A stretch of DNA of 64,000 nt from Schmidtea nova (GCA_044892505.1 CM097883.1:256060001-256124000), one strand, 5' to 3'. Counted from the first letter of the stretch, positions 11,633 to 42,319 are shown. The notes: generated by a model from the letters alone, not told the origin. Numbers and translations are program-made.

Positions 11633-12996
11633 CATGAATTTATAATATTTAATGCTTCTACCAAGGAATCACGGTTTGATACATTTATGATTTTTTATGA
11701 CTATGCAACTTAATTGAATATTAAATAATTGAGTTAAAAATAATTAAATCCAAAGATTTCTGAAAGTGAAAACTAAAAACAAGTGGCAATTGAAAGAATA
11801 CATATATATTATATAATTTCATATTAATAATTGTTTCTAAAAGGTGTAAATGCGAAAAAATTAATTAATTAAAAAATTATTCATTCCATCAATTATCATG
11901 ATGTAGAAAATAAAATTTCGTTTTTGACAGCCGATAGCTTAAAATTTGTTAAACTAGAAATATTATAGATTGTGTTGTCAGATTGATTTCGTATCCTTAA
12001 GAAAACTTGAGAAAAAAGCGAATCTCATTGTAATTATTTATGATAACTCTGAAAACAAATGAAATTTACTCGATTTTGATTGGCTCGTCTATAGGTAAAA
12101 TTTTGAATTAAAATTTGTGTAGTGAAGACTTAAAATTTCAATTTTGTTATGTATTAATTAAAGGAAATAGAACTGGTGAAATTCAACTTAAATTTTATTA
12201 GACAGTTTATTGTTATTGAAGTTCAAGAAATCAAGTCTGAAAAGTTGAAAATAAAATATTAAGAAATTGAGAATGTGGTTAAAATAATTTGTATAATTTT
12301 TGAATGAAAATAGTTTAAAGAAAAGTAAATTTGTTTCAAAATTAGAGCCAAATGTAAATTTTCTAATTGTTATAATAAAAGTAGTAAATTAAAACAAAAA
12401 AGTAAAATGAAAACTAATTATGTGAATATTATGAATGCTGGGATTATGGGTGGGTTTTAAGTAATTCAAATAAATTATTAATCATTAATTGAACGACTAT
12501 TGATGAGTACGTATACTAGGGATTTCCACGCCCATAACCATACATAACATGACTACTACACGCGTATGCCCTTGACTATTCCCCACTAGTCAAGTTGGTA
12601 CTGCATACGGTGGTGGAAAAATGATGGGCAGGTGAGCTTTGTTGCCAAAACTACTCCCCATTTATCTTCCCTCGGGTCCTTGCTGCCGATAGAAGGTCTT
12701 ACGCATTTACATTCTATGGATGTTCGTTTCTTACTGCATTTTATACTACATATCCTTATGATCTATCATACGCTTTTCCCAATGACTTTCCTTAATTGAT
12801 CTACAATGTAATTAATCAGTCTCGGCGTAGAAATGGTCGGTTTGAGAAAATTACGGATGCGATTTTCTATTTCGATGATTTCAGTGTTGTTAATTTATTT
12901 TATTTAGTAACCTCGCCCGATGAGAGACAAAATTTACACAGAAAATACTTTTATTAAAATACTAAAATCAGGTTGTTATTTTACATGGATATTTTC

Positions 12997-13581
12997 CTAA
13001 GCGAATTCCAGACTGATCTCCTGAATCAACTCCGCTTCGGTTAAGGAGTTCAAGTGGTGGATTTGTTCGTCCAGGCGCTTTGCAACTTCTCGGCGACGAC
13101 GACGCTGTCGCGATCCCATTCGGTGTTTCCGAAGCTGTTGGTTTATGACCGGTGCTGACGCTATTGTTCTCGGGGGATCACTGAGAAAAACAGGCAAATC
13201 TTCCGTTGTAAGAGAGGGGGCCATGATGATTCCCTCTTCCGTCCCGCAAGCGACATCTTGGTGAGTGCATTGTATCCAGCGCTGAGCTGTGATCGGCCGG
13301 ATTAGCGCTCGTAATTCGGAGTCGATGTAACTTCTTGTTACTGCATTTAGGCAATTTCGGAGTTCTCGCTGGACGGCATCTAGTTCCAATTTGGTTGTGG
13401 CCAGTGCTTCCTGCATTCGCTCCAGTTTTTTCGACTGGTCCTTCATTTGTTCGGGCGAGAACCACTTCGCTCTCAATTCATCGTTGGCGACCGTGAGTCG
13501 CTTGATCTGGCGCTGCTGGTCCCTCAACTTCCTCTCTTGGACTTGTCCCATGATTTTCTTGGAATTTTCTGAAGTCGGCAT
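12997..13581 (-). CDS. LTR-encoded ORF-B (194 aa): coiled-coil, Arg-rich motif; 3' LTR copy
   Basis: ATG-initiated GC-richer island between AT-rich spacers. TTCAG/ACAG acceptor-like sites precede the ATG and AATAAA follows. Contains RKHRMGSRQRRRRR. Confidence 0.6.
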   Translation of the reverse strand: MPTSENSKKIMGQVQERKLRDQQRQIKRLTVANDELRAKWFSPEQMKDQSKKLERMQEALATTKLELDAVQRELRNCLNAVTRSYIDSELRALIRPITAQRWIQCTHQDVACGTEEGIIMAPSLTTEDLPVFLSDPPRTIASAPVINQQLRKHRMGSRQRRRRREVAKRLDEQIHHLNSLTEAELIQEISLEFA

Positions 13582-13910
13582 GCTGTCTGAATATTATAAC
13601 GATAAATTCGCTGGAGGACCTATCAACAATGTTATTTTATTTAGTCTATTATTTACTATCATTAAACGAGATGCATACTAATGTTTTTAATTATTAAGTT
13701 TGTTGCCAAATTAATTAACTATCTAATTATTGAAGGCTCAAAAATTTTATTGAACTAATTTGAGATTATTAAATGAAATTCCTAATGACTATAACAACTA
13801 CAATACTGGATATTAATAAATCTACATTACGACACTATTAACAAAATGAGATACTTCAGAAATTTTTTAAAACATTTATTAAATTCAAAAATAGGTGGCC
13901 ATTGATTCAA

Positions 13911-14387
13911 TTATCCATCTTCGGTCATTTTTCCCCGATACGAAAATATCGATTTAATTTGCAAATTTGTGTGGATTCCTGGGCTATTGGACGAGGCTTG
14001 CTGGAAGCGGATTCTCTCAGCTTCTCGAAGGGGTCGTATGGCTGTATTGAACTTGAACCCCAATTCCTTGAAGGTAGAGGCTGGAATGAACCCCCAATAA
14101 ATGACACATTTCGGGAATCCTCCTTTGTCCAACATCAGGATGAACCAGGCGGCGTGCCATGATTCGAATTCCTCATCTGGAATGATTGGCCAACTAGCGC
14201 ATCCCCGGTACCATACGTGGTGCCGTGGATGGTCCCATACTGTAAATGGACAGGCGGTTTCGAGCTCTCGGCGCCATGCCCACATCTTTTGATGGATTTG
14301 CTGTAAAATCTCGAAAGGAGCCGGCTTTAATGGGCTAACTCGGGCTCGTTCTTGTCGTTTTTTGATAGTGTATCTATGCTTAGTCAT
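13911..14387 (-). CDS. LTR-encoded ORF-A (158 aa), Trp-rich, unknown function; 3' LTR copy
   Basis: ATG-initiated GC-richer island. TTCAG lies 15 nt upstream and AATAAA downstream. No family recognised. Confidence 0.55.
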   Translation of the reverse strand: MTKHRYTIKKRQERARVSPLKPAPFEILQQIHQKMWAWRRELETACPFTVWDHPRHHVWYRGCASWPIIPDEEFESWHAAWFILMLDKGGFPKCVIYWGFIPASTFKELGFKFNTAIRPLREAERIRFQQASSNSPGIHTNLQIKSIFSYRGKMTEDG

Positions 14388-15236
14388 GATTCCAAAACGA
14401 TGCTGAATTTTATAATAGTTACAATTTACATCAATAATTAATCATAGTAAATGTTATCTCTCATCGTGATATCTTTATTATTTGCCTACCCCTTAGACCT
14501 TAACTGAAATCAAGGGAAAACTGCTGTTCGTTACGGTATGCATTACTCTCGTATCTACCTAGATTTATCTGTTTACGATCAATATTATAGTCGAAAAATT
14601 GGTGATTTGTCTGCTTGGATTTTCAAAATATTGATGCCTCAAAACGGAAGCTCTCTCACGTCATGTATCCCTAGCTTATTCGAAAAACGCTCTTTTGTAT
14701 CAAATGCAGTCGACATAATTTTTCTAAGGTTTATTAGACGTTTGTTAAACAGCTGTGCTGTGGTGAGGGTGAAAAATTGTGCCTCCTCCCGGTTAACAAA
14801 TTCTTTCATATCTTTAAGCTTTATCAAAAAATTATCGTCCCCTCTGTAGCTAAAATGATCGGAAAATAATTCCCCGGATTTGTTGGGTGTCCCATGTGCA
14901 AATCTCAACCATTACTAATAAAATTATGTTTTGTTATTTATTACTTTACCGTGTGTGGAGCCCTCGAGCACCACGCCACGGACGGACACCTTGGGAACCT
15001 AAAGCTCCCAACGGCGCAAGATTAATAAGATAGTTTAAATAGTTCAAATATAACATAAATCATAATGAGATAACTAATAAATTATAATATGATAATGACA
15101 TATGAATACAACGATATCAAATAATAAACGCAAATATACCAAAAATACCTCAATTGAATTCTGAAAATTTATTGATCAAAATCGGTCTAAACGGTGATCG
15201 TCGTCGGGGCAATGTGCAATCTAATGTGAATTATTA

Positions 15237-15360
15237 GTCTGAACACAAGTCTAAGTTTTTTGCAAAGTCTAAATTTCAGTCTCAAACAAAGTCACAAGTC
15301 TAAAATCTATATTCTAACAAAGTCTACTAAAGTCAAGGATCTAGTCTACCAAAGTCTGAT
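15237..15360. promoter_or_regulatory. Cluster of ~10 (A/T/C)AGTC(T/A) motifs in the U3-side part of the LTR (also 40681-40804)
   Basis: AAGTCT-like hexamers recur every ~10-15 bp. An enhancer role is inferred only. Confidence 0.35.
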
Positions 15361-15782
15361 TTTATGAAAAATCTGATCAGTATTTATACTGATCAGTCGT
15401 GTCTAGACTGACCAATCAGGTTTGGCCAGTTTCATGGTGGTTTTTAATTATTGTTTTTGATTCTAATTAATTTTTATTTTTTAGATTGTATTCTTCCTTG
15501 GAGGTCCGGGTTTCAAAAACAATTATTCAATAACAAGTACTTTTATTTGGTTTTAATTATTATTATTTGTATTTTATTTGTTTTTAGATGTCTCCTGGGC
15601 CCGTTAATATCTATAAATTCATTTATTTTTATTTATAGCTTGTACTTAGTTATTCTATATTTTTACTATATTATTCCTTTCTTTTAATAAATAAATATTC
15701 CCCTTTTTACCTTATTTTTCTCTTTTTTGTTTTAATTAATCTACTTTTATTTCACTGTTCCCTCTATTTGGCTGGCCCAACA

Positions 15783-15985: not shown

Positions 15986-16558
15986 TTACACAAGCTCTTT
16001 GATTTCATGATTGGTATTGGATTGGATTGGGGTTCTTCCGCCGATTGTTCGTAGTTCGTAGTGGCTTTGGATTCGGTTTAGGTGTTTTCTCATTCGCTTT
16101 TGGGTTCTGATGTCTTGTATTGTTGTTCGATTCAGGATGACTTGTTTTTGTTTTAGGATCTTCACTCGGTATGATGTTATGAGGATTGTGATCGCGATAA
16201 TGGTCACGCTGAGTGCAAGGATTATTATAATTGCGATGATCCATTTTTCTTGATATTCTATCTCTGCTTGGGCTAAGCTTTTTATGGGTTCTCGACCTTC
16301 TTTTAGGGTTTTTCTGATTGTTTACAATTTGATTCGATGTTCATATAGGACCTGTTGAAATTTTTCATCGTTTGGGTTGTCTGATGTTATCTGTTGAAGT
16401 TGGGTGATTTCTTGTGTTGCTTCGCTGATTAGTTTATCTAGTTCTTGATAGGTTTTCTCGGGTAGGGCTCGTAGCTCCTTCTCTGTGAGTTGAAGATCTT
16501 CTCTTTGTAGGGTGATTGTTATTAGGTATAGGAATATCGGTATTCTGAGCTTTTTCAT
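15986..16558 (-). pseudogene. Accessory type-I membrane protein (~190 codons) with one in-frame TAA
   Basis: ORFs 16322-16558 and 15986-16207 share a frame: signal-like MKKLRIPIFLYLITITL, coiled-coil, RIKL*TIRK, TM WIIAIIIILALSVTIIAITILI, basic tail. Confidence 0.7.
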
Positions 16559-16639
16559 ACTGTTTCTTTACAGATAGGTCAATACAATTTGACACTACAT
16601 TTCATACAATTATTTACAGAAATATATTTTCCGCTTTAT

Positions 16640-17701
16640 TTACACAATCGTCTCGTTCGGTTCGTAGAAACCTTCGTCCTGAAGCTCTACTTGGTTCGTG
16701 GGGAGTGGTATCCAAACAACCCTGCTCCTCCACATTTCGACTTCATCTCGATACATGTGAGATATCTGGATCTCCTCGTCCAGCAAATATTCTAGGTAAT
16801 TTGCTTGTTCTGTTAATGTTTCTATTTGCTTCTCTAATTCGATTACTTTTGTCTTTTGTTCGTCTTCTTTCGTCATTTTTGTTACGGCTGCCGTTATACT
16901 TGCTTCTTTGGGTATTACTGATACTGTTACTCGTTTCTGTTTCAATTCTTCGTTTTCTTTCATCAGATTCGTTAAATTTTCCTCATAACTTTGTTTCTCT
17001 TCCTTTAACCTTTCTCTGGTTCTTTTTAGCTCTATTTTCTTCTGGGTAATCACTCCTTAGTAACCATTTATATCTCTCTTCATCTCTTCTTCTTTCTGAT
17101 TCCATATTCCGTTGAGCATAATCTTCAGTTGTTCTTGATTAGCTAGTTCTTCTCCCATTCTTTGAACTTGATAGGTTAGTCCTTTAATTTTCTTTGCTTG
17201 TTCCCGGATAAATTGCTGTCTCTTTGTATTCCATCTTTTATTCAACACTTCTTGGTGTATTTTCTGTTCTAACTCGTCTTTTAATTCGTCGATCTCTTTA
17301 TATAATTTCCAGTCATCACTATAAGCTGTCTTTTCTATTATTTCCCTAGCTTTTTCGTAAGATTCTTTCGCTTCTTTCTTCCAGTATCTTGCTTGTTCTG
17401 TAATCGAATATATCTTGTGTTCGGCTTCCATCTGCTGTCTGTCTCTTTCCTCTCGTCGCTCTTTCATCATTCTCTGGTAATATTCCTTTTGTTGTTGTAG
17501 CATTTTGTATACTTCTTCTATTTTTTCTCGATTTCTTTGACTTGATCTTTCCGCTTCTTTTAATAATTCGGCTTGTCTCTCTTTCTCCTCTTGCTTTCCA
17601 TAATATGCATTGACCCATATTTCAATCTGTTCTAGATGATCGCTAATCGCTTCTGCTTGATGCATCGTAATTTCCTGTAAGCATACTTCGATATTTCCCA
17701 T
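16640..17701 (-). CDS. Accessory long coiled-coil protein(s): 214 aa + 137 aa in one frame, separated by one TAA
   Basis: ...GGT TAC TAA GGA GTG ATT... at 17057-17059. E/K/Q/R heptad-rich throughout. Poly-T tract and TTATAG precede the ATG. Confidence 0.7.
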
Positions 17702-17817
17702 TGCTATAATTTCAGAAAAAAAAAAATTTTAATCGGTTTATATATCAGTTATTTTTGTTTATATAATAATTTTTGGGTATTTAACTGTACATATTATTTA
17801 CATGATCACTTTTCTTG

Positions 17818-19200
17818 TTACGTCAACCATCCTTTTCTATCCGCTTTCTCATTCCTTTCCATTTCTATGTATAGGGTGTCTGCATATAATCGTTCCCATA
17901 GGCTTTCTTTTGTTATAAACATCGGTTCTCCCGCTGCTAATCCACATTCTGTGGTTGGTTTCTCGCTCGTACTCGCATGTTTCTCTGTCTCAAAGAATTT
18001 TTCCACTGGTTTTGTTACACTTCTGATTCTTACAATGACTCCTACTTTCAAGGGCCATTCTACTAGGTCGTCGTATTCCCCTTTACATAGCGAGAAAAAT
18101 ATTGACACATGTGTTCCTCGTCCTCTTCCGTCTCCATTTGGGTATAGCTTCAATCTCACTTTAGCTCCGTTTCTCCATAAATAAAATGGTGGGCTTATTA
18201 CTGCTGTTTTCGTCATATTTCTGGCCTCTGTTAATTTGTCTCTAAAATCTGTCACTTTCCACACATATGGTGCGATTGGTAACTTTTCCTCGGTATCCTG
18301 GGTGAGTTTGTTGTACTGGATTTTCATTCCTTTAGCCAATTCTTCGATAGCTTTTATCTTTCCCTCCATCTTTTCTCGTGTTAGTTCGAATTGCTCTCTG
18401 GTTTCCAACAGTAGGTTTACCATTATCTTGTGTGACTCTATTTCTCTTTCTAATTTTGTGATTGTTTGTTCGGTTTCTTTTGTTGCTTCGTTTGTCATTT
18501 CCGCATGCTTTAGCAATGCTTCCTCCAGATGTTGTTTCATGGTTTGTTGCGTTCTTTTCTCCATACATCCCTGTTTGTTATAAGGACATTCCCTTGGTTT
18601 CTCCGTGCACACTTTCCAATGTTCTTGTAATTTTACTTCTACCGTTATCTCGCATTCGTTTGAACATATTCCTACATATTGTCTACATACTTTCTCCTCT
18701 TTTACATTCAGGTGTTCTTCTTCGATCTTTCTCCTCGTTTCTCGAGTTCCACAATATTCGCATAGACTTTCCTCTTCTTTACATTCATCTTTGTGCTGCT
18801 CTTTATTCTTTATAGTTATCTTTTGTTGGCATTTGTTACATTCAGTTCTCTTCTCTTCGCAGTTCTCCAGATGGTTCTCGAGATCGCGTATTTGTCCTTG
18901 CCATATACATGGTTGATTTATACATTCGGTTTTCGTGTTCATGATTTCTCTCTGAGTTGCTCTATCTGGTCCGGTTTCTTTGAATTTTATTTGTCCTTCT
19001 TTGCATTCTGGACATTCTGGTGGTCTTTTCATACTTAACTCGTGTATGCATTTGGTACATACTCTGCATCCGCATAGGGTTTGTCTTGGTTTCAATATTA
19101 TGTTTTTACAATTTACACAAGTGAGTCTCTGACTCCATTTCCTGTTCTCGGCTCTCAAAATTTCGATTATCCGCTCTTCGGCTTTTCCTTCTGTATTCAT
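17818..19200 (-). CDS. TRAF: Intronless TRAF-family protein (RING, TRAF zinc fingers, coiled-coil, MATH/TRAF-C), 460 aa
   Basis: CVNC...CGCRVCTKC...CPEC RING; CINQPCIWQGQIRDLENHLENC and ECPYNKQGC zinc fingers; YVWKVTDF...SPPFY...LKLYPNGDGRGRGTHVSIFF...GEYDDLVEWP MATH signature. Confidence 0.95.
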   Translation of the reverse strand: MNTEGKAEERIIEILRAENRKWSQRLTCVNCKNIILKPRQTLCGCRVCTKCIHELSMKRPPECPECKEGQIKFKETGPDRATQREIMNTKTECINQPCIWQGQIRDLENHLENCEEKRTECNKCQQKITIKNKEQHKDECKEEESLCEYCGTRETRRKIEEEHLNVKEEKVCRQYVGICSNECEITVEVKLQEHWKVCTEKPRECPYNKQGCMEKRTQQTMKQHLEEALLKHAEMTNEATKETEQTITKLEREIESHKIMVNLLLETREQFELTREKMEGKIKAIEELAKGMKIQYNKLTQDTEEKLPIAPYVWKVTDFRDKLTEARNMTKTAVISPPFYLWRNGAKVRLKLYPNGDGRGRGTHVSIFFSLCKGEYDDLVEWPLKVGVIVRIRSVTKPVEKFFETEKHASTSEKPTTECGLAAGEPMFITKESLWERLYADTLYIEMERNEKADRKGWLT

Positions 19201-19291
19201 TCTACAATGATATATACACTTGATTTGTTATCTATTTTTTGATTTTTCTTGTTTTTGTTTTTACATATTTACAATTTTTCGCTTTATTTAT

Positions 19292-31700: not shown

Positions 31701-34700
31701 CATTCTGATAACGTGGATGGTTTGGTGATTATCCCATATACCAATTTTATATAGCCGTCTTTCATCGTGATCCCATAATACATGTTCGTTGTATTTCATG
31801 ATTATGTCATCTTCCCATTCTTCTTCTGGTTCTCTTTGTAATAGTGTCTCGTTGATGACATTTACTAATTCTTTTATGGTACAATCTGCTACCACTTCAA
31901 TTTCTTTGGTATCCTCATTAGGTAACTCTACTGCAATTTTCAGATCTGTTATTTTCCCTTGTCTGAACATTGCTTTTCCCATTTTGGCAATTACTTTTCC
32001 GTATGAGATCTGTGACCATCTCGTGTGACTTGTGTCACGTATGCACTCGATACATCGTTTTAACTTTTCGTATTCGCTTCTCATTAACTCCTTTCTATGT
32101 TTTTTGATTTGTGGGATGATTTGTTCTATCATGGAATTTAGATTTCCTCGTAAGATTCGTCCTTTCTCATATTCTAACCGTGGTTTTATCTTCTTCTCGA
32201 AACACATATTTGCTTCCTTTGCTACTTCTTGTAGGTTCTCTTCCCTCTTATCATCGCATATCGATAATGTCGTCACCTCTCCTGGCCATATGCCTGTTTC
32301 TATCAAATGCGTCCTTTTCTTCACTAGTCCATTCTGTGAATAGAGGAATTTGTTTTTATATGAACTCCCTAATCTATCTTCTACCCATTGATAAATATCT
32401 TCCGTGAGTGGAGTTTTGACCCAAATCCTTGGCAAACATGTTTTTATCTCTATTAGGATTATATATTCATGGAGTGGTTCTTTTAATAATTTTCCTACGT
32501 ATTGGCTTAGTGTTTCTACTTCCCTGCCTGGTAACCACTCTTTATAGTTCATTTGTAATATCGCTCTCATGAATTTTCTATAGTGTTTCTTGTCAATGAA
32601 TTCCTCATTATATATTACTTCTAGCGTATTATCTAATAATTTCTGGATCTCGTCTTCTTTTACTTGAATAGTTCCTGGTGTCTTTACTACTTCTATCTTT
32701 TTGTCTTCAATTTCTGGTTCGTTTAGCATGTCCCCTGCTAGACTACTGACGTCACTATCCTCTTCGTCGTCTGAAAAATTCCTTGCCTGGCCTCTCAACA
32801 TGTTAATGTGTTTTATTTGGTTGATTTCCCTTGGTGTATTTTCCGTGGGTCTTGTTTCACTTTTAATAGCTTTTTGTGTTGATTCACTCTTGTCGTCTAC
32901 TACCTCGACCTTTCTCATTTTTCGTTCTAACTCGTCTATTTCTTCCAGCCGTCTTCGTATCATTTTCCCTTTAAATATTCGACTGATTCGTGTTTCGTGA
33001 CGCACTGGCGATGGAATTCCTTCTGGTTCTATTTCCTTGATTACCATCACATTTCTTTTTGTCTCTACTACTCCCATGTTTTCCCATGTATCCGTTAGTT
33101 TCAATTTTACTTCTGGTGCACCTTCTATTTTTAGGAATACTTCTCTGGGCAGTTTCGTTACTCCTGGAGCCATTTCATTCACTTTATTGAACAATATTTC
33201 TACTTCTTCCTTTATGTTATATTGGAATCGAAACACGTGCTTGTTTGGCAATATTACCATCATTCCTCTTTTCCCGAGTTTCCTTTTCTCTTCTTGGTTC
33301 CTTTCTTTTTCTACTTCCTTTTCTGTTTCTTTTTCTGCTTCTTCATCTTCTTGTATTATCTCTTTTCGGCCTTCGTTGTTGGTTGGATTCGGGTTTGTTA
33401 GATTTATTTCTGGAACAGTCTCTTTCTCGTGGGTATTTGTTTGATTGGTTGCTCTCATCATATTAATTCTTAGAGGTTGTCGTTCTCTTTCTTGCTGTTT
33501 TTGTTCCTCTTCTCTTTGTATTCTTGCCCATTCCTGAGCATGTCGTGCTTGGCTTTCTCGATTCAATCGTTCGTTTTCGCTTTCTATTTTTCTCATCATA
33601 TTGATTTGTTGTTGACCTGTTTGCGGATTTCCTCTGGTTGTATTGTTTATCAGCTCCGTCAATCTTTGAACCTCTTGCATTAAATGTATCTCTTTAGTGG
33701 TATTTTTATTTTGGTTATTATTATTACTATTTGGTTGGTTTCCGTATTCCGGTTGGTTTCCATTATTTGGCTGATTCCCATAATTCTGTCGGTTTCCACC
33801 AGTTGGTTGGTTTCCATAGTTTTGTCGGTTTCCGGTATTCTGCCAGTTTCCTCGTTGATTGCTTCTTTGTCCGCAATTTCTTGATAGGTGTCCAGGCCGT
33901 CCACAATTAAAACAGGTTATTGTGTAACATCTGCTCTCTGAATGCCCTTTTACTCCACATTTTCCACAATTCAAGTTCTGATAACATTCTTGTTGCCAAT
34001 GTCCCAATTTCCCACATGTTTTACATTGTTTCGTTGGTCCTTGGGGGTTGTAATTGCTTTGATTTCCGAAATTTGATACTTTATTCCCTTCATTCCTTCG
34101 TTGCGGTGGTGGTCGGTTTAATTGTTGTGAATTTGGAATGTGGTTATTCAGGTTCACTTCTTGTTCGTTTTGTGCTGTATCCATAGCTAAATAGATTCTA
34201 CCATCATTTCCTATCATGTGTAGTTCAAATCTATTAGCTGTTTCTAATGCTTGGTCAATAGTTTTACACCCTTGACATCCAACTTGCGCTCTTATGTCGG
34301 GTCTTCTTAATCCTCCCACAAAGATAGCTGCCATTAACTCTTCATTTATTGGACTGTCTTGATTGAAAATCAACTTTGCCAACTTTTTTAATTCGCTTGC
34401 ATATACCGCATTTGATTCATTTATCTTTTGTTTCCTCATTGAGAATTCCGTGAATGCCTCATTCAATACTTTGTTTATTCCGAAGGTTTGTTGGAAAAAG
34501 TCCTTTATCGCTGACCAACTTGTAGGTGGATTAATTCCATTTTTTGCTTCCAAATATAGATCTAATGCGCTATCTTTTAAATATAGCTGAATTCTGCTTA
34601 CAGTTGTTTCTGGTTTCCACTTGCATACTTCCACGAATATGCCAAATTCCTTTAAGAAAGTTTCTAATTTACTCGCATCTCCATTAAACGGTTCTCCGGA

Positions 34701-35162
34701 AAATTTGTCTTTTATCTCTTCTCTTGGTTCACTCATTTCGATTCCGCTGTCTGTAGTTATTTTACTTTCGTTTCCTCTTGTTTCTAGTTCACTGTTAGGT
34801 TCGTCACTCGAATTTCGGTCGATCTCAGTTTCTTTTGCTGATTCGTTATCTGATGCTTTACTATCGTTATCGGTATCGTCACTTTCTGTTTCTTGTTCTA
34901 CTTCGTCTTCTATTTCTTCTATATAATCGTTGTTGGTTTTGTCGACTTCTATTTCACTTATTGGGTTTCTCTCGGGTTCTGCTTGATTTTCTTTGTTGCT
35001 TGAACTGTTGCTTGTTACTGATAATTTATCGTTTTCGATAATCGACTTTTGTATTATTATCTGCCTTGCTTTACTTCCTTTTAGGCCTTTCTGATTATTA
35101 TTCTTGGTAGCTTTATTCTTTTCTGCTGGTTTTATTATGACACTCTTTTCTCCTTTTCTCAA
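25710..35162 (-). CDS. gag-pol: Polyprotein 5' part (3,150 aa): Gag, UBL x4, AT-hook, Bcl-2-like, fusion glycoprotein, protease, RT
   Basis: Uninterrupted 9.45-kb ORF with PFNGD capsid-like region, three CCHC knuckles, DTG protease and RT (FCIDYRRLN, DLKSGYWQ, MPFGL, YIDD). Track start is TTG; first ATG is at 34736. Confidence 0.95.
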   Translation of the reverse strand: MRKGEKSVIIKPAEKNKATKNNNQKGLKGSKARQIIIQKSIIENDKLSVTSNSSSNKENQAEPERNPISEIEVDKTNNDYIEEIEDEVEQETESDDTDNDSKASDNESAKETEIDRNSSDEPNSELETRGNESKITTDSGIEMSEPREEIKDKFSGEPFNGDASKLETFLKEFGIFVEVCKWKPETTVSRIQLYLKDSALDLYLEAKNGINPPTSWSAIKDFFQQTFGINKVLNEAFTEFSMRKQKINESNAVYASELKKLAKLIFNQDSPINEELMAAIFVGGLRRPDIRAQVGCQGCKTIDQALETANRFELHMIGNDGRIYLAMDTAQNEQEVNLNNHIPNSQQLNRPPPQRRNEGNKVSNFGNQSNYNPQGPTKQCKTCGKLGHWQQECYQNLNCGKCGVKGHSESRCYTITCFNCGRPGHLSRNCGQRSNQRGNWQNTGNRQNYGNQPTGGNRQNYGNQPNNGNQPEYGNQPNSNNNNQNKNTTKEIHLMQEVQRLTELINNTTRGNPQTGQQQINMMRKIESENERLNRESQARHAQEWARIQREEEQKQQERERQPLRINMMRATNQTNTHEKETVPEINLTNPNPTNNEGRKEIIQEDEEAEKETEKEVEKERNQEEKRKLGKRGMMVILPNKHVFRFQYNIKEEVEILFNKVNEMAPGVTKLPREVFLKIEGAPEVKLKLTDTWENMGVVETKRNVMVIKEIEPEGIPSPVRHETRISRIFKGKMIRRRLEEIDELERKMRKVEVVDDKSESTQKAIKSETRPTENTPREINQIKHINMLRGQARNFSDDEEDSDVSSLAGDMLNEPEIEDKKIEVVKTPGTIQVKEDEIQKLLDNTLEVIYNEEFIDKKHYRKFMRAILQMNYKEWLPGREVETLSQYVGKLLKEPLHEYIILIEIKTCLPRIWVKTPLTEDIYQWVEDRLGSSYKNKFLYSQNGLVKKRTHLIETGIWPGEVTTLSICDDKREENLQEVAKEANMCFEKKIKPRLEYEKGRILRGNLNSMIEQIIPQIKKHRKELMRSEYEKLKRCIECIRDTSHTRWSQISYGKVIAKMGKAMFRQGKITDLKIAVELPNEDTKEIEVVADCTIKELVNVINETLLQREPEEEWEDDIIMKYNEHVLWDHDERRLYKIGIWDNHQTIHVIRMDDKPRETAKDEKRERERQKEVVHKLQQIVDIYRNWRIWPEWEDVLEELNLNRRLRTPVEKQWNERGKCWEPKAGEYEEEYEIGIEDDHKPETGRVCMVTRKAMPADLDGPETATMWLEREKQKTEEFVEILKTNAHGKRKVVKGLADFFVVNGEDITCLRKVAKAIAEYKRVNEWCPEQLDHVIKKWRNQEFSQESPQKVHLRIVYPNQEKEEFWVGIAEKVRDIKKKLRYEPPFHLQHQGRSLDNSLEIGITPAQLDIANTLTVAAIAGQPLKLKEEKKPKGSMSTPSPMKSVMTPGTSSEQARTTPRETRERTPPEPYDVDEIFTDSDDMLEELIELTKEKDDNIFERIQELPTAIPVTNTEDEVEQEIIIEEVNEIAEEEARRANVENVQFTQEMERWLEERANEPRDVTEETGRETRLVEMGTTMDKRPRGRPKIDPANVVIKSREEKRRDQWDLCLKKLNKIAETKEKETTQTYQGEEWISKMLIEILAIIDPELKKWWRINEISERAKSLHSAIAPILPELIKEKTRSNHLDWQGTTMLIKKLTEGAETDNKYLIAMAYTIYNLLTLSRGRLKPTALERHIKNTAKIIEKEIEPYIISKGGWETFTKTNQKKNQAKNMKRKFEEILGELEKEKSGTGNGKSSLNLSSIIMMMLIWMISTDGATAFEVFDCDQMALGEKYSLRGTEQCKDATPTELKTLKKRQLYHVYQEAELIRTMVRECKVYKTRFAFYCGHRHYSAIVMPGTERESVMLQGEDCEKLFKHGEVETRDRVKIRGKTGVILQQTYYVAGAITGGEGYCQGATYPIFGVAATNLVVIDTYTVELKTYEAFFDPTTGEMKTLPMCKIESNTCQTGMSTLTYQIRGKECQLQLLKEAEFDEIQGKTFQEEEEDEVARGKILQDTVRGEKKIETRTQEKQIKMRNTPTVLITSDADIGMRFVKGKTALKCGVAMLETNYPGIFVSKQEVPSAKRKVHTNDVKLHLYMNNKMDFLFHRGQASLQKVYYDLINNDCILNREILKTKLAVAITNPDSAMPLLPLREGHFGRVVGEVMYVYICKKTNAKVATMTKLQPGQCTNELEIEYKGKVRYVQPVTRIINPISFEPNPFNCSNAYGPLYQKPDGNWVMFPSRTEVPAPREFELMQLSKGRKFKDVDVSNMGFYSAKDLEAARQNILFPARMEAVLSSIVTITGGTNYQGGPNYELLLSPAHFKKATENMMKAMWGRFLIFGQMMAGILGVILIIQIIRVIITQMLACFDIYKREKKVNWKLVVGFLPFLAKTMVLHGHSKDIHRIKRLLKILAKMKGTDEEVGRKFKKIMNNEQARQQLKKERKGLWERMKGYRTQDDSSDDDDDDNEGGQVFKNQVPQYVEKNPAEMWKCYAPPPTMYQEPTPGMRQNTMQMMPMTNIYPMIPEDYRTRRCRSVDPQGDSHTIAVMSSNTGPVLTTTIEINGREIEAMIDTGANISAIDIKWIPQEQRRDIERTNVHVIACSKEVVEVAGRWWVKIKHQNTEIETYVAVIPALSVPCIIGTDLMPALFKEIVIDLGTMRLKDRTGQICAIEAKVTSSKQIIVPARREKICFVKIDPTIEGDMIFEPSKRFEKRKSLPMARGLVSANDNGEIPINVVNFDEEDKIIYENERLGKLTPMIDIEIPIKEGVKEEEPTWNIDSQLLNEDQKKQLERLLMEYKDIFAASDLDLGTCDVTLHTIPLTDKTPIALRPYKLAEAQKSVAEAEVQKMLDAEVIEPSCSPWQFPVVMVKKKDGTQRFCIDYRRLNAVTKRDTYPLPDINEMLLTLQGAAYFTSLDLKSGYWQIKMKEEDKEKTAFTIGRDLYQFRKMPFGLTNAPASFQRCMNFVTHGIKQCMVYIDDLLIYSSTFEQHIQDIRDVFVRLRQWKLKLKPSKCDWAKEKVTFLGHIVSAKGKEPDPRNIDKVKECPVPKTITQIQEFLGLCGYYRKFIKDYAGIAKPIQELVKKDVCSYGEANNKQPSKHYEIS
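25800..26560 (-). other. Reverse transcriptase core
   Basis: SPWQFPVVMVKKKDG, LDLKSGYWQ, MPFGLTNAPASFQR; YIDD at 26088-26099. Confidence 0.97.
27050..27370 (-). other. Retropepsin aspartic protease
   Basis: AMIDTGANIS (DTG at 27306-27314) and IIGTDLM. Confidence 0.95.
27835..29750 (-). other. env: Envelope-like fusion glycoprotein, chuvirus G / class III-like, in frame between Gag and protease
   Basis: Signal SSIIMMMLIWMISTDGATA|FEVFDC. Cys pattern ECKVYKTRFAFYCGHRHYSAIV, GYCQGATY, KCGVAMLETNYPGIFV, YMNNKMDFL, DCILNREIL, VVGEVMYVYIC, CTNEL, PVTRII, CSNAYGPLY. TM GRFLIFGQMMAGILGVILIIQII. Confidence 0.85.
29865..30340 (-). other. Bcl-2-like domain
   Basis: All-helical ~160 aa ending in BH2-like IEPYIISKGGWETF. 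Divergent BH1-like DNKYLIAMAYTIYNLL. A hydrophobic anchor follows ~35 aa later. Confidence 0.65.
30387..30410 (-). other. AT-hook motif KRPRGRPK
   Basis: Exact HMGA-type AT-hook consensus, in frame (aa 1585-1592). Confidence 0.75.
30898..33270 (-). other. Four ubiquitin-like (beta-grasp) domains with helical spacers
   Basis: ~33030-33270, 32250-32465, 31700-31947 (IAVELPNEDTKEIEVVADCTIKELVNVI...IMKYNEHVL...LYKIGI...TIHV) and 30898-31106 (LQHQGRSLDNS). No C-terminal GG. Confidence 0.7.
33872..34710 (-). other. gag: Gag capsid-like domain and three CCHC zinc knuckles
   Basis: EPFNGDASKLETFL...LYLKDSALDLY; CKTCGKLGHWQQEC, CGKCGVKGHSESRC, CFNCGRPGHLSRNC. Confidence 0.92.
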
Positions 35163-35716
35163 CGGGATTACTTTTGTATACTCAATTTTCCTGTCTTATC
35201 GTGTTCCGATTCTTTTCTTCCTTGGTTGCTTGGTTTGGTTTGATTGATTTATCTAAAATACAAATGTCACTTCAACGATACTCTATTGTTATCGTTGCGC
35301 TTTTATTCTCTTTTTACGGGACTTCTCATTGCTGGGTTTCTATTATTTTTCCCCATTCCCAGATTCCCCTTTATTTAAGTCTATTTAAATTATCTATATA
35401 CTAGTCACAATTATCTATTTAGTCATAACAATTATCTATCGGTTATTCAAATACATCAATTATTTTTCCCGCGGTCTCCCAATTTATTTGTCGTTCGAAC
35501 GCTCTAATTCCCTGAGTCATTTGACTCGATTATTATTTTATCATCTCTTTATCTTTCTCTCTGCTAGCCTCTAATTATTAATTCTGCCGGTCTTTCCGGT
35601 CAGCTCCTATTTCTCAATTCTACTTGCATGCATTATTTTAGGTCGCATAATCAGCTTTACTCGCATTTCTCAATTCCTGGTGCGCACTATTCTCATTATC
35701 GTCGACGATCACAACT

Positions 35717-35930
35717 CTGGGCCTATATTCCCTCTGTTGTTATTTCTTATCACTTGCAACCCTGGGCCTATATTCCCTCCGTTGCTACTCAAACGATTGT
35801 AACCCTGGGCTTATATTCCCTCCGTTACTATCTTCCTTTAATTTTAAATAATTGCAACCCTGGGCCTATATTCCCTCCGTTGCTACTCAACAATTGTAAC
35901 CCTGGGCCTATATTCCCTCCGTTACTATAT
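35717..35930. repeat. Leader array 1: five copies of a ~27-nt core
   Basis: CTGGGCCTATATTCCCTCCGTT(G/A)CTA-like cores start at 35717, 35762, 35805, 35860 and 35902. Confidence 0.85.
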
Positions 35931-35968
35931 ATCCGGATATCCCTATTGGCTCCTTTGGCCTCTAATTA

Positions 35969-36136
35969 ATATCAATTATCTCAAATGGCTCTTATGGCCT
36001 CAAATTCATATCTCAATTATCTCAAATGGCTCTATTGGCCTTAAATTCATATCTCAATTATCTCAAATGGCTCTATTGGCCTTAAATCATATCTCAATTA
36101 TCTCAAATGGCTCTATTGGCCTTAAATCGTATCTCT
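35969..36136. repeat. Leader array 2: four ~41-bp tandem units
   Basis: ATATCTCAATTATCTCAAATGGCTCTATTGGCCTTAAAT(T)C repeated. Confidence 0.9.
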
Positions 36137-36179
36137 CAATAACGCCTAGCTAGGTCATTCAATATGGCTCTTTGGCCTC

Positions 36180-36579
36180 AACCCTTTGTTTCAAGGGACA
36201 AACCGCTGATAACCCTTTGTTTCAAGGGACAAATTCTAATAACCCTTTGTTTCAAGGGACAAACCGCTGATAACCCTTTGTTTCAAGGGACAAATTCTAA
36301 TAACCCTTTGTTTCAAGGGACAAACCGCTGATAACCCTTTGTTTCAAGGGACAAATTCTAATAACCCTTTGTTTCAAGGGACAAACCGCTGATAACCCTT
36401 TGTTTCAAGGGACAAATTCTAATAACCCTTTGTTTCAAGGGACAAACCGCTGATAACCCTTTGTTTCAAGGGACAAATTCTAATAACCCTTTGTTTCAAG
36501 GGACAAACCGCTGATAACCCTTTGTTTCAAGGGACAAATTCTAATAACCCTTTGTTTCAAGGGACAAACCGCTGATAAC
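36180..36579. repeat. Leader array 3: perfect 61-bp (31+30) higher-order repeat, 13 monomers
   Basis: AACCCTTTGTTTCAAGGGACAA followed alternately by ACCGCTGAT (7x) and ATTCTAAT (6x). Confidence 0.97.
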
Positions 36580-37053: not shown

Positions 37054-37515
37054 TTATAAATAAACTACAATTTTATCAGCTACAGAGAAATTGCACATGG
37101 GGCACTCATCACACTTGTTCGCACAGTTTTTACAGAATCGAAAATGTCCACATGGAAGAAACATTATTTGGATTTCACTGTCTTCGCATATGTAACATTG
37201 TTTATAGTGTTTTGCTGCCTCGACCCCTTGCGACATCCATCGGTTATATGTTAGACTTAACTGCTGTTCTATATGTCGGCATCTAATATTCAACTCGGCA
37301 TCCTCTAATCGTGCTTTGTACCATTTATATCGCGTATTTATATCGAGTTTATTCACTTTCTCTATGATTTTTATTAACTCAGTTGTTTCCTCCGTTTGTG
37401 TCGTAGGTTCCTCATATTCGGATGCTCTTATTCGGGTTATTTTTTCGCAGACTGTCTCAAATGTATCGTTCTCGGTGTTGAAAAATTCCTCGATTTCTTT
37501 CAGTTTTTCCTCCAT
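37054..37515 (-). CDS. Accessory protein with C-terminal IAP/XIAP-type RING finger (153 aa), between PBS and gag
   Basis: CYICEDSEIQIMFLPCGHFRFCKNCANKCDECPMCNFSVADKIVVYL at the extreme C-terminus. No BIR domain seen. Confidence 0.88.
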   Translation of the reverse strand: MEEKLKEIEEFFNTENDTFETVCEKITRIRASEYEEPTTQTEETTELIKIIEKVNKLDINTRYKWYKARLEDAELNIRCRHIEQQLSLTYNRWMSQGVEAAKHYKQCYICEDSEIQIMFLPCGHFRFCKNCANKCDECPMCNFSVADKIVVYL

Positions 37516-37561
37516 TTCCTAGATAATTTATTTAATTACTGTGTTAATATTATTCGAAAAG

Positions 37562-37855: not shown

Positions 37856-37873
37856 ATCCCGGCTGAGCCCCCA
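37856..37873 (-). other. Primer-binding site, tRNA-Pro type
   Basis: TGGGGGCTCAGCCGGGAT, 16/18 identical to the classical tRNA-Pro PBS TGGGGGCTCGTCCGGGAT; 6 nt from the LTR end. Confidence 0.88.
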
Positions 37874-38440
37874 AATTTATGCTGGGATTATGGGTGGGTT
37901 TTAAGTAATTCAAATAAATTATTAATCATTAATTGAACGACTATTGATGAGTACGTTTACTAGGGATTTCCACGCCCATAACCATACATAACATGACTAC
38001 TACACGCGTATGCCCTTGACTATTCCCTACTAGTCAAGTTGGTACTGCATACGGTGGTGGAAAAATGATGGGCAGGTGAGCTTTGTTGCCAAAACTACTC
38101 CCCATTTATCTTCCCTCGGGTCCTTGCTGCCGATAGAAGGTCTTACGCATTTACATTCTATGGATGTTCGTTTCTTACTGCATTTTATACTACATATCCT
38201 TATGATCTATCATACGCTTTTCCCAATGACTTTCCTTAATTGATCTACAATGTAATTAATCAGTCTCGGCGTAGAAATGGTCGGTTTGAGAAAATTACGG
38301 ATGCGATTTTCTATTTCGATGATTTCAGTGTTGTTAATTTATTTTATTTAGTAACCTCGCCCGATGAGAGACAAAATTTACACAGAAAATACTTTTATTA
38401 AAATACTAAAATCAGGTTGTTATTTTACATGGATATTTTC

Positions 38441-39025
38441 CTAAGCGAATTCCAGACTGATCTCCTGAATCAACTCCGCTTCGGTTAAGGAGTTCAAGTG
38501 GTGGATTTGTTCGTCCAGGCGCTTTGCAACTTCTCGGCGACGACGACGCTGTCGCGATCCCATTCGGTGTTTCCGAAGCTGTTGGTTTATGACCGGTGCT
38601 GACGCTATTGTTCTCGGGGGATCACTGAGAAAAACAGGCAAATCTTCCGTTGTAAGAGAGGGGGCCATGATGATTCCCTCTTCCGTCCCGCAAGCGACAT
38701 CTTGGTGAGTGCATTGTATCCAGCGCTGAGCTGTGATCGGCCGGATTAGCGCTCGTAATTCGGAGTCGATGTAACTTCTTGTTACTGCATTTAGGCAATT
38801 TCGGAGTTCTCGCTGGACGGCATCTAGTTCCAATTTGGTTGTGGCCAGTGCTTCCTGCATTCGCTCCAGTTTTTTCGACTGGTCCTTCATTTGTTCGGGC
38901 GAGAACCACTTCGCTCTCAATTCATCGTTGGCGACCGTGAGTCGCTTGATCTGGCGCTGCTGGTCCCTCAACTTCCTCTCTTGGATTTGTCCCATGATTT
39001 TCTTGGAATTTTCTGAAGTCGGCAT
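38441..39025 (-). CDS. LTR-encoded ORF-B (194 aa); 5' LTR copy
   Basis: Same as 12997-13581 except V14I. Confidence 0.6.
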   Translation of the reverse strand: MPTSENSKKIMGQIQERKLRDQQRQIKRLTVANDELRAKWFSPEQMKDQSKKLERMQEALATTKLELDAVQRELRNCLNAVTRSYIDSELRALIRPITAQRWIQCTHQDVACGTEEGIIMAPSLTTEDLPVFLSDPPRTIASAPVINQQLRKHRMGSRQRRRRREVAKRLDEQIHHLNSLTEAELIQEISLEFA

Positions 39026-39354
39026 GCTGTCTGAATATTATAACGATAAATTCGCTGGAGGACCTATCAACAATGTTATTTTATTTAGTCTATTATTTAC
39101 TATCATTAAACGAGATGCATACTAATGTTTTTAATTATTAAGTTTGTTGCCAAATTAATTAACTATCTAATTATTGAAGGCTCAAAAATTTTATTGAACT
39201 AATTTGAGATTATTAAATGAAATTCCTAATGACTATAACAACTACAATACTGGATATTAATAAATCTACATTACGACACTATTAACAAAATGAGATACTT
39301 CAGAAATTTTTTAAAACATTTATTAAATTCAAAAATAGGTGGCCATTGATTCAA

Positions 39355-39831
39355 TTATCCATCTTCGGTCATTTTTCCCCGATACGAAAATATCGATTTA
39401 ATTTGCAAATTTGTGTGGATTCCTGGGCTATTGGACGAGGCTTGCTGGAAGCGGATTCTCTCAGCTTCTCGAAGGGGTCGTATGGCTGTATTGAACTTGA
39501 ACCCCAATTCCTTGAAGGTAGAGGCTGGAATGAACCCCCAATAAATGACACATTTCGGGAATCCTCCTTTGTCCAACATCAGGATGAACCAGGCGGCGTG
39601 CCATGATTCGAATTCCTCATCTGGAATGATTGGCCAACTAGCGCATCCCCGGTACCATACGTGGTGCCGTGGATGGTCCCATACTGTAAATGGACAGGCG
39701 GTTTCGAGCTCTCGGCGCCATGCCCACATCTTTTGATGGATTTGCTGTAAAATCTCGAAAGGAGCCGGCTTTAATGGGCTAACTCGGGCTCGTTCTTGTC
39801 GTTTTTTGATAGTGTATCTATGCTTAGTCAT
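39355..39831 (-). CDS. LTR-encoded ORF-A (158 aa); 5' LTR copy
   Basis: Identical translation to 13911-14387. Confidence 0.55.
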   Translation of the reverse strand: MTKHRYTIKKRQERARVSPLKPAPFEILQQIHQKMWAWRRELETACPFTVWDHPRHHVWYRGCASWPIIPDEEFESWHAAWFILMLDKGGFPKCVIYWGFIPASTFKELGFKFNTAIRPLREAERIRFQQASSNSPGIHTNLQIKSIFSYRGKMTEDG

Positions 39832-42319
39832 GATTCCAAAACGATGCTGAATTTTATAATAGTTACAATTTACATCAATAATTAATCATAGTAAATGTTA
39901 TCTCTCATCGTGATATCTTTATTATTTGCCTACCCCTTAGACCTTAACTGAAATCAAGGGAAAACTGCTGTTCGTTACGGTATGCATTACTCTCGTATCT
40001 ACCTAGATTTATCTGTTTACGATCAATATTATAGTCGAAAAATTGGTGATTTGTCTGCTTGGATTTTCAAAATATTGATGCCTCAAAACGGAAGCTCTCT
40101 CACGTCATGTATCCCTAGCTTATTCGAAAAACGCTCTTTTGTATCAAATGCAGTCGACATAATTTTTCTAAGGTTTATTAGACGTTTGTTAAACAGCTGT
40201 GCTGTGGTGAGGGTGAAAAATTGTGCCTCCTCCCGGTTAACAAATTCTTTCATATCTTTAAGCTTTATCAAAAAATTATCGTCCCCTCTGTAGCTAAAAT
40301 GATCGGAAAATAATTCCCCGGATTTGTTGGGTGTCCCATGTGCAAATCTCAACCATTACTAATAAAATTATGTTTTGTTATTTATTACTTTACCGTGTGT
40401 GGAGCCCTCGAGCACCACGCCACGGACGGACACCTTGGGAACCTAAAGCTCCCAACGGCGCAAGATTAATAAGATAGTTTAAATAGTTCAAATATAACAT
40501 AAATCATAATGAGATAACTAATAAATTATAATATGATAATGACATATGAATACAACGATATCAAATAATAAACGCAAATATACCAAAAATACCTCAATTG
40601 AATTCTGAAAATTTATTGATCAAAATCGGTCTAAACGGTGATCGTCGTCGGGGCAATGTGCAATCTAATGTGAATTATTAGTCTGAACACAAGTCTAAGT
40701 TTTTTGCAAAGTCTAAATTTCAGTCTCAAACAAAGTCACAAGTCTAAAATCTATATTCTAACAAAGTCTACTAAAGTCAAGGATCTAGTCTACCAAAGTC
40801 TGATTTTATGAAAAATCTGATCAGTATTTATACTGATCAGTCGTGTCTAGACTGACCAATCAGGTTTGGCCAGTTTCATGGTGGTTTTTAATTATTGTTT
40901 TTGATTCTAATTAATTTTTATTTTTTAGATTGTATTCTTCCTTGGAGGTCCGGGTTTCAAAAACAATTATTCAATAACAAGTACTTTTATTTGGTTTTAA
41001 TTATTATTATTTGTATTTTATTTGTTTTTAGATGTCTCCTGGGCCCGTTAATATCTATAAATTCATTTATTTTTATTTATAGCTTGTACTTAGTTATTCT
41101 ATATTTTTACTATATTATTCCTTTCTTTTAATAAATAAATATTCCCCTTTTTACCTTATTTTTCTCTTTTTTGTTTTAATTAATCTACTTTTATTTCACT
41201 GTTCCCTCTATTTGGCTGGCCCAACATGAAGGACTTTATGAAATTACGGGAAAGCGGTATGTCAGTTGCTAGATTTTGAACAAAGTAATGTAATTATTTA
41301 CTATAAAAAATTACTTAAAAACTTTACAATCGACCATGTTGAAATATCGATACAATTGTCAACTACGATTTTGATGAATTCCAAAGAATATTTCCAAATG
41401 ATCAATATTGTCTTTAACAATATTGAGATATTTATGGGACAAGAAAATATCAACACTTTTTATGGGCTCAAACTCAAAAGTGGAGGAAGAAATTCTACTA
41501 CAATTACGAGAGGAACAAACGAGAATGGAACAGCATCAACTTTGTTGTACCGTGAATGAATTAACCATGTTCTCAATGAAAACAGTATCATGTCAGTTTA
41601 TAGACCAGATCAAATCATTTTATTAATTGGTAGAGATATCATAACGAAGTACAACAACAAGAAGATAAAATCTATTGATTTGAATAGAATGTATTTTGTC
41701 ATTAATCTTTAAATTTTCCTAAAAATAATATTCAATAATAAATCAATTATCTATTCAGATCCTAAGACCTCTACGTACGATGACTGATGCAAGAATGTCG
41801 GTGTGTGTATTAATTGAAAGTATGCAAGTATTTCAATGAATGGAGTTGTCAATAAATATATATAAACTAAAAATAATTATTTCAATAAAGTTCTCATTCA
41901 AATATCATGTACAAACAATATATGTCGGAAGATTACTTAGAAAAAAATTAGGATTCAGAAGAATTTTGAACGAATTTTATTCTAAGGAAGTTATACTGAG
42001 TTTTACCGGTTATTCGAAATTCCATATTGAATATTACATTAACATGAGCACATCAAAATGAAATAAAAAATAATTAATAGAGTAAATTTCTTTGAATATT
42101 AAATTTAATAAACTTAAAATTTTCTTTGATCCCAAATTGGTTTGAAAAATAATAATATATGTGATGGTGAATTTTGAGTTTAAAATATACTGAGGACTTT
42201 CAATATAGCTTGTAAGGTTTTTCAGAATTGGGATTTATTCAATATAATTCTAATATTTCACAGATTTTACTGAACTAAATTATCTTTTCACACAACAATT
42301 ATTAATGATTTATTTTTAG

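Follow-up and report, generated by a model that had tools for sequence, protein, structure and literature searches.

A young, defective copy of a giant Env-bearing Burro-type retroelement in Schmidtea nova and the predicted role of its cell-death and ubiquitin-type cargo

A 64,000-nucleotide stretch of the Schmidtea nova genome (GCA_044892505.1 CM097883.1:256060001-256124000), here called the window, contains a Burro-type Ty3/gypsy unit of 28,791 bp at 12436..41226, with all genes on the minus strand. It is a young, defective copy of what is quite probably an actively spreading enveloped element, one whose family-level polyprotein and spliced accessory proteins are predicted to keep the host cell alive and to damp its stress signalling. 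As the headline architecture has been published, the element itself is no discovery; the new detail lies in purifying selection across almost all of its cargo modules, fold support for its Bcl-2, ubiquitin-like (UBL) and FN3 domains, a second membrane cassette that is conserved throughout its clade, and the way in which genes are shared out between autonomous and cargo-only lineages.

The first-pass annotation had proposed a 28.8-kb unit bounded by long terminal repeats (LTRs) and flanked by target-site duplications, and its boundaries are exact. The structural features are as follows.

37880..41226, minus strand: 5' LTR, 3,347 bp, TG...CA
12436..15782, minus strand: 3' LTR, 3,347 bp, TG...CA
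12432..12435 and 41227-41230, no strand: target-site duplication TGAA, 4 bp, on both flanks
37856..37873, minus strand: primer-binding site, matching the 3' end of host tRNA-Pro(UGG), 6 nt inside the 5' LTR end
35695..36579, no strand: leader tandem arrays, units of ~45, 41 and 61 bp
25710..25830, minus strand: copy-specific frameshift at the connection of reverse transcriptase (RT) and RNase H, where two long open reading frames (ORFs) overlap

The two LTRs differ at 3 mismatches over 3,347 bp, and the insertion is recent. Duplications of 4 bp are also present at two further family copies, and the 18-mer of the primer-binding site has 2,940 genome matches, all lineages together, against 0 for the reversed control. 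The stretch before the 3' LTR, at the position of a polypurine tract, is conserved between lineages and mixed in its letters; the sense strand of the element is 43% A. The TG...CA repeats, the duplication, the primer-binding site, the order protease-RT-RNase H-integrase and the gypsy-type RT place the element in Ty3/gypsy (Metaviridae). As a separate observation, a long tandem array of tRNA-Pro(UGG) genes with 308-bp spacing lies at L113 (contig 1, ~459.6 Mb), and the tRNA-Pro(UGG) pattern has 1,106 genome matches.

Three copy-specific breaks make the window copy defective, and it cannot make its own RNase H and integrase in frame. When 20 close copies were fetched and 19 matched, the region 25,710-25,830 was open in 17 of the 19, all 19 being gapped relative to the window; the family therefore encodes one polyprotein of ~5,000 aa, and the two long ORFs first read as separate proteins result from a frameshift private to this copy. 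The other breaks are a stop at 17057-17059 in a coiled-coil gene, absent from 11/11 other copies, and a stop at 16322-16324 in a membrane-protein gene, absent from 6/6. The family is numerous, with the TRAF gene giving at least 92 genome matches, at least 84 of them at 95% or more, and at least 80 of the 92 free of stops.

By pairwise counting against two sister-lineage copies (~80% nucleotide identity; dS ~0.3-2.7, some values near saturation), the ratio of replacement to synonymous substitution rates (dN/dS) of the cargo is 0.03-0.4 overall, and purifying selection acts on almost all of the cargo modules. The parts of the polyprotein are listed from its N-terminus.

34737..35195, minus strand: ATG-free open frame, 153 codons, upstream of the first Met
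33867..34736, minus strand: Gag capsid and three CCHC knuckles (zf-CCHC 8e-7; Retrotrans_gag matches in relatives)
30885..33275, minus strand: four UBLs at 33021-33275, 32247-32480, 31701-31955 and 30885-31115, with helical domains; dN/dS 0.03-0.29
31116-31373, minus strand: conserved four-helix domain before UBL4, fold unassigned
30387..30410, minus strand: AT-hook, kept in lineages A1, A2, C and B and in proteins P0121 and P0128
29853..30278, minus strand: Bcl-2-fold domain, with a BH2-like motif and no NWGR; dN/dS 0.06
27927..29759, minus strand: Env, with signal-peptide-like segment 29691-29759, ectodomain 28002-29690 and transmembrane (TM) helix 27927-27998
27012-27383, minus strand: protease (Pfam 3.5e-8)
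26742-27005, minus strand: dUTPase-like position, a conserved 88-aa segment without a Pfam match; dN/dS 0.04
25767-26699, minus strand: RT (Pfam 1e-37); dN/dS 0.01
23968..25767, minus strand: RNase H (6e-38) and integrase (7e-22 and 1e-10), catalytic residues present
22378..23700, minus strand: two ankyrin modules at 23278-23700 and 22378-22707 (Ank_2 2e-13); dN/dS 0.06-0.12
19774..21726, minus strand: second type I membrane cassette, with signal-peptide-like segment 21667-21726, four FN3-like repeats 20263-21666, TM helix 19948-20016 and a short tail

Pfam matches thus bear out the combination of Gag, protease, RT, RNase H and integrase with a fusion glycoprotein in one unit. The Env ectodomain is of the gB/chuvirus type, matching the Monjiviricetes fusion glycoprotein at 2e-68; all 14 of its cysteines are kept in five relatives at 36-79% identity, and dN/dS against the sister lineage is 0.07. 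A furin motif was not found in Env, and such a motif is not always kept in elements with gB-type Env, according to the available portion of PMC13524379. The class III Env, the signal-peptide-like segment, the conserved cysteines and the TM helix agree with the HSV/gB-type errantiviruses, the assignment being made for Env by profile and pattern. A quick, midpoint-rooted RT tree of 47 rows (38 chosen of 120 matches, with few named references), which speaks to grouping only, places the window RT with Ty3/gypsy proteins; it is 87% identical to the RT of lineage B, and the two group at 99% SH-aLRT within a larger group that includes other Env-bearing elements.

The N-terminal extension has a dN/dS of 0.31-0.37, is open in four lineages and in 0 of 2000 shuffles, and across 516 nt of its region every frame is free of ATG, against an expectation of 6.9. 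It is likely translated from a non-AUG start. An AUG supplied by a spliced leader was considered and dropped because the lineages share no in-frame acceptor.

Within the cargo, the window Bcl-2, UBL and FN3 domains fall below Pfam cut-offs (E 0.12, 0.03 and 0.16) and were therefore tested through profiles of relatives and predicted folds. A model of the helical-UBL4-Bcl-2 region built from 9 alignment rows has a mean pLDDT of 62.5, with folded domains mostly at 70-87. The Bcl-2 part matches Bfl-1 (Z 13.7, rmsd 2.9, 139 aligned), the top 20 rows being all Bcl-2 family, and UBL4 matches ubiquitin (Z 10.4, rmsd 1.7, 70 aligned); Foldseek agrees on both folds at E 0.002-0.01, with none below 0.001. 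A Bcl-2 profile retrieved 11 proteins out of 1.8 billion; true Bcl-2 proteins are among them, as are six relatives linked to Gag/Env and two matches that are likely false. A homologue search with the UBL-Bcl-2 region gave no match among proteins of 1654-5264 aa. The Bcl-2-like domain of the first-pass annotation is accordingly upheld by fold and profile; as it has no NWGR, an anti-apoptotic action is uncertain. The claim of four UBLs holds unevenly: UBL4 stands by its fold, UBL1 and UBL2 by the pooled UBL profile only, which matches single ubiquitin domains at 7.6e-8. The UBLs have a dN/dS of 0.09-0.29 against the sister lineage; as they are internal and have no C-terminal Gly-Gly, they are integral UBL domains and not conjugatable ubiquitins. 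For the four-helix domain before UBL4, homology searches gave no credible match, and a CID-like reading was considered and dropped.

The FN3, ankyrin and AT-hook domains are likewise supported, by fold, Pfam and conservation in relatives. One FN3 repeat was modelled at pLDDT 82.5, with a Foldseek list of mostly FN3 domains (TM-score ~0.6, E ~0.01), and a homologue lies above the Pfam fn3 cut-off; dN/dS here is 0.15-0.30. In sister lineage A2 the signal-FN3-TM cassette is present twice in tandem, which indicates that it is a module.

Outside the polyprotein lie accessory genes, ORFs within the LTRs and candidate expression signals.

37054..37515, minus strand: RING protein, 153 aa, IAP/MDM2-type RING (zf-C3HC4_3 1.4e-11); dN/dS 0.08-0.12
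19292..19648, minus strand: coiled-coil accessory gene, 118 aa; dN/dS 0.11-0.16
17818..19200, minus strand: intronless TRAF, 460 aa, with RING, zinc fingers, coiled coil and MATH; dN/dS 0.13-0.16
16640..17701, minus strand: coiled-coil gene, ~353 aa in the family, split by the stop at 17057-17059
15986..16558, minus strand: gene of a small type I membrane protein (~190 aa in the family), interrupted by the stop at 16322-16324
39355..39831, second copy 13911-14387, minus strand: LTR ORF, 158 aa, family unassigned
38441..39025, second copy 12997-13581, minus strand: LTR ORF, 194 aa, with a coiled coil and a conserved Arg-rich motif
16559..19773, minus strand: four spacers separating the 3' genes, 81-125 nt long, each with UGUAHAUA following the stop codon and YAG immediately ahead of the next ATG
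38140..38150, minus strand: candidate 5' splice donor, heading the only LTR block conserved between lineages and kept in 5/6 aligned LTRs

The TRAF had been called complete, and Pfam agrees (MATH 7e-21, zf-TRAF 8e-5); a homologue search with it gave two unnamed matches at 23-24% identity. The IAP-type RING protein fared less well: the RING is present, and with no BIR domain found by Pfam in any window ORF, the gene is not an IAP. The coiled-coil and membrane proteins stand as family genes, each split in this copy by its private stop; dN/dS reaches 0.40 for part of the membrane gene. The LTR-internal ORFs are real in the sense that both keep frame and start codon across LTRs whose proteins are 28-36% alike (28-33% for the 158-aa ORF, open with its Met); neither matches anything in Pfam, PDB profiles or Atlas. 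For the 194-aa ORF, a Rev/Rex-like role is suggested by resemblance only.

The accessory genes are probably expressed by cis-splicing from the LTR, a reading of sequence signals that is favoured over trans-splicing. Of 29 accessory genes from four lineages, 21 have a YAG at a distance of 0-5 nt upstream of their first ATG (3.7 expected by shuffling; 26/151 for an internal-Met control). UGUAHAUA occurs at most 130 nt upstream of 18/29 accessory genes against 0.9 expected, and in the 22-kb internal region all eight occurrences fall within the four spacers or at their borders, most of them directly behind a stop. Contigs of unspecified kind from four public runs (one study) evenly cover all 30 bins of 15800-21500 and are uninformative about splicing or expression. 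The other reading, in which the array forms an operon that the host resolves through spliced-leader trans-splicing, with a 3' end for each gene, is tentative and rather unlikely. It draws on the short spacers and the 8/8 placement of UGUAHAUA, and on reports of flatworm spliced-leader trans-splicing with operon spacers below 300 nt in the available portions of PMC12582326 and PMC10899757. A retrovirus-like donor after the primer-binding site was rejected, none being conserved within 300 nt downstream, and this too suits an operon. Against it, the donor-like site heads the sole LTR block conserved between lineages, and UGUAHAUA fits Pumilio or CFIm binding as well.

From the structure, copy-specific breaks, family size, folds and purifying selection given above, we infer a mechanism for the intact family member. 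Genomic RNA would be primed by tRNA-Pro and translated into the ~5,000-aa polyprotein, of which Gag, the UBLs and the Bcl-2 domain would be cytosolic. Hydrophobic segments lie after the Bcl-2 domain, at the end of Env, after the ankyrin region and at the end of the FN3 array, and a chain that enters the endoplasmic reticulum (ER) twice would be their simplest reading. The first signal peptide would take Env into the ER, and its TM helix would return protease, RT, RNase H, integrase and ankyrins to the cytosol; a second signal peptide would turn the FN3 array outward, anchored by the second TM helix. The parts may be freed by signal peptidase and the element protease, probably at a recurring Ile-Asn-Met-type motif, which occurs after the nucleocapsid and after the integrase, similar words flanking the protease; in-frame deletions of relatives join near these putative sites. 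The Bcl-2 domain would remain membrane-anchored through the Env signal peptide. For the RING, TRAF, coiled-coil and membrane genes, the LTR leader would probably be spliced to the acceptor before each ATG. The cargo likely helps the stem or germ cells that harbour and replicate the element to survive, and Env probably permits budding and entry into adjacent cells.

Several points weigh against this reading. The family is known here from genome sequence alone, and the signal peptides rest on hydropathy and pattern, the first scoring below threshold in the window. An additional hydrophobic stretch lies within the FN3 array, and several domain borders are without the protease motif. The four lineages of the YAG count are related and not independent, the window alone giving 6/7. 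No functional IAP (BIR) is in the window element, and the BH1 NWGR motif is absent from its Bcl-2 domain, which may therefore act outside apoptosis. Some Bcl-2 folds of poxviruses are inhibitors of NF-kB and not of apoptosis. In the available portion of PMC8532177, the smedwi-2 phenotype persisted under BURRO1 RNA interference, a result that has little bearing on cargo and shows no simple dependence. The same portion reports BURRO1 RNA in tissues upon piwi knock-down, and piRNA-targeted traf-6/ank1 transcripts are reported in that of PMC6824462.

The first-pass annotation had held that the family may be partly known, through the giant planarian Burro Metaviridae, and that prior description of the architecture would remove its novelty. 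Both apply: section 7 of PMC6431247 (Arkhipova and Yushenova 2019) describes Burro/GYPSM1 with Gag, CCHC, MATH/TRAF, Ubi/SUMO-like, BCL2-like, in-frame Env, dUTPase-like, BIR and ankyrin parts, proposes integrated proviruses, and suggests interference with apoptosis and ubiquitination. The anatomy and the idea of a cell-death and ubiquitin toolkit stand. In a family of many copies the cargo is held by purifying selection; it neither failed profile and structure searches nor proved neutral or private to one copy. Burro1-4/GYPSM1 of S. mediterranea and the Burro-like element of D. tigrina are alike in ~30-kb size, long LTRs, thousands of copies, tandem repeats, MATH/TRAF cargo and one ~5,000-aa ORF that comprises Gag, CCHC, UBL, Bcl-2, in-frame Env, protease, RT, RNase H, integrase and ankyrin. 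The element shares with them the size, multi-kb LTRs, high copy number, cargo set and, at the family level (the window copy being frameshifted), the single ORF. They differ in the MATH domain, which is part of a stand-alone downstream TRAF in the window, of an upstream accessory ORF in D. tigrina and of ORF1 in Burro1; neither BIR nor a midasin-like part was seen in the window element. Section 7 of PMC6431247 mentions neither the FN3 membrane cassette nor LTR ORFs or splice signals. With MATH separate and no BIR, the element is a member of a Burro-type sister family and not Burro1 itself, the likeness to Burro being one of description and not of sequence alignment. Both narrower Burro1 traits, BIR and MATH in ORF1, occur in lineage B or its derivative, lineage B having MATH within its polyprotein as in Burro1.

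Other systems are alike in part. In its available portion, PMC13524379 gives six S. mediterranea elements of GAG-ENV-POL order whose Env is of the gB type (Smed_errantivirus_1-6), alike in Env type and gene order; by eye, the window Env is nearest to _5 and _6 of those seen there. The entries are of 14.5-18 kb and name no primer tRNA, and the words Bcl, fibronectin, ankyrin and exonuclease occur nowhere in its main text. Viral Bcl-2 folds (BHRF1, KsBcl-2, A179L) and poxviral Bcl-2-like inhibitors match at Z 11-13; unlike viral Bcl-2 proteins, the window domain lies within a retroelement polyprotein, directly before the Env signal peptide, and its function is predicted only. Foamy viruses, HTLV, MMTV and Ogre are alike in large size, probably spliced accessory genes and LTR ORFs, the last being known from MMTV and foamy viruses; they differ in that the window RT is Ty3/gypsy and its Env is of class III type and inside the Gag-Pol frame. 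The FN3 membrane cassette, the ATG-free N-terminal extension and the cargo-only relatives were not found in the literature searched, which lay outside Grohme 2018 and Lee 2026; figures or supplements of these two may already show the FN3 cassette, cargo-only elements or further cargo.

The relatives in the genome divide into autonomous and cargo-only lineages. The first 20 primer sites in one orientation on contig 1, which are not a random sample, comprised 1 of the window lineage, 2 of a lineage ~70% alike, 2 of the autonomous lineage B, which has MATH inside its polyprotein, 11 cargo-only derivatives of B and 4 other or interrupted sites. The derivatives (including L074, L102 and L110; contig 1, ~1.513-1.539 Mb) carry protease, ankyrin, FN3, TRAF, BIR-RING IAP and membrane genes and are without Gag, Env, RT and integrase; in all eight followed downstream the protease alone was found of seven B domains, the 3' LTR being reached in six. 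The one fully described is of ~25 kb and carries a RING, a helical-UBL-protease-ankyrin-FN3 fusion, a TRAF, a BIR-RING IAP (2e-16), and coiled-coil and membrane genes. Its LTR and leader are 84-96% alike to those of autonomous B over most of their length, and coding parts common to the two have a dN/dS of 0.11-0.39, some of this constraint possibly being older than the loss of autonomy. In a 297-codon membrane gene at L102:6858-7748, replacement differences exceed synonymous ones in 7/7 comparisons with the L102 copy, unlike its neighbours; diversifying selection or a copy-specific effect is possible. An optional gene at L103:2-1429 has a signal peptide, EGF-like cysteines and a TM helix, and is neurexin-like by eye without Pfam support.

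Further relatives show the same modules in other arrangements. An 11-kb family X, its RT 46% identical, repeats the order UBL-Bcl-2-signal-Env and the post-integrase signal-ectodomain-TM part, its Env being near Smed_errantivirus_1 by eye; these arrangements also recur in the public proteins P0121, P0128, P0123, P0127 and P0009. A smaller Gag-UBL-Bcl-2-Env-Pol family at L054-L056 (contig 2, ~299.547-299.565 Mb) is bounded by LTRs of 855 bp; it carries a membrane cassette after integrase and, as a gene of its own, a DEDDh exonuclease (RNase_T 8e-7 in L063), its Env being near Smed_errantivirus_1 by eye. A lineage C copy (L078 and L099) has lost RT, RNase H and integrase to one in-frame deletion lying between protease and ankyrins, and retains Gag, Env and the whole cargo. 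Deletion derivatives of ~12 kb hold only the 3' accessory genes between LTRs (L015-L016, L027-L028), one with an insertion of a Tc5/pogo-type transposase. A TBP-domain ORF (1e-13) at L031:5913-6404 lies within an insertion in one copy, and a protein-primed DNA polymerase B remnant at L025:6694-9102 lies near another; both are likely Polinton-related.

What the cargo is for bears on two further readings of the family. That it is kept mainly for host benefit, through mutualism or partial domestication and not for replication of the element, is the less improbable of the two, and still not favoured. The available portion of PMC13465017, citing Lee 2026, reports the Burro1 IAP as anti-apoptotic and stem-cell-protecting; that B-IAP is alike as anti-apoptotic Burro cargo, the window RING being without BIR and the BIR-RING lying on the cargo-only lineage. 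Cargo-only elements also keep TRAF, IAP and membrane genes open, with synonymous changes exceeding replacement changes in most genes. Set against this, the copies are young, dispersed and many, constraint between lineages arises during replication, and the window insertion already has three breaks, as expected of unselected copies.

That the family is a truly infectious giant metavirus, as the first-pass annotation proposed for the element, is unlikely. Its particles, bearing Env and FN3, would pass between cells and animals, with the cargo as viral counter-defence and the cargo-only relatives as satellites packaged by a helper. The strong constraint on Env with its 14/14 cysteines, the two further membrane proteins, the LTR and leader shared by cargo-only and autonomous elements (84-96%) and the 11/20 sampled primer sites would suit it. 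Env constraint fits equally well with spread from cell to cell inside one animal, and Chary and Hayashi, in the available portion of PMC13524379, read such env elements as long-term host-inherited. Its fullest form, a multi-component enveloped virus system, is similarly doubtful: a polyprotein threaded twice into the ER in flavivirus-like fashion, a fusogen with a modular FN3 attachment or decoy protein, a Bcl-2 domain anchored by the Env signal, and helpers that package 25-kb satellites. Were it true, satellites with only protease and immune or cell-death cargo (TRAF, IAP, membrane proteins) would far outnumber helpers and would spread between stem cells, perhaps between animals. That the unit is an artefact joined during assembly, or a passive heap of neutral fragments captured from the host, is practically excluded: the TRAF copies, the gene order shared by other copies and lineages and dN/dS values far below 1 refute it, the four-run contigs (one study; 30/30 bins of 15800-21500) count against it, and no point in its favour was found. 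With ~2,900 primer-site copies in this genome, these elements may supply a large share of planarian TRAF- and IAP-like sequence, which would affect the interpretation of stem-cell survival and of TRAF expansions in a regeneration model.

The flanks of the element in the window hold remnants of hAT, piggyBac-like and Tc1/mariner transposases (2178-4563, 46292-46672 and 48671-49534) and an AT-rich 2.2-kb element with long terminal inverted repeats, partly N (50159-52420). An ORF with a weak GIY-YIG match (61030-61782; E 0.018), possibly a Penelope remnant, sits between related repeats at 54.8-56.1 and 59.1-60.6 kb.

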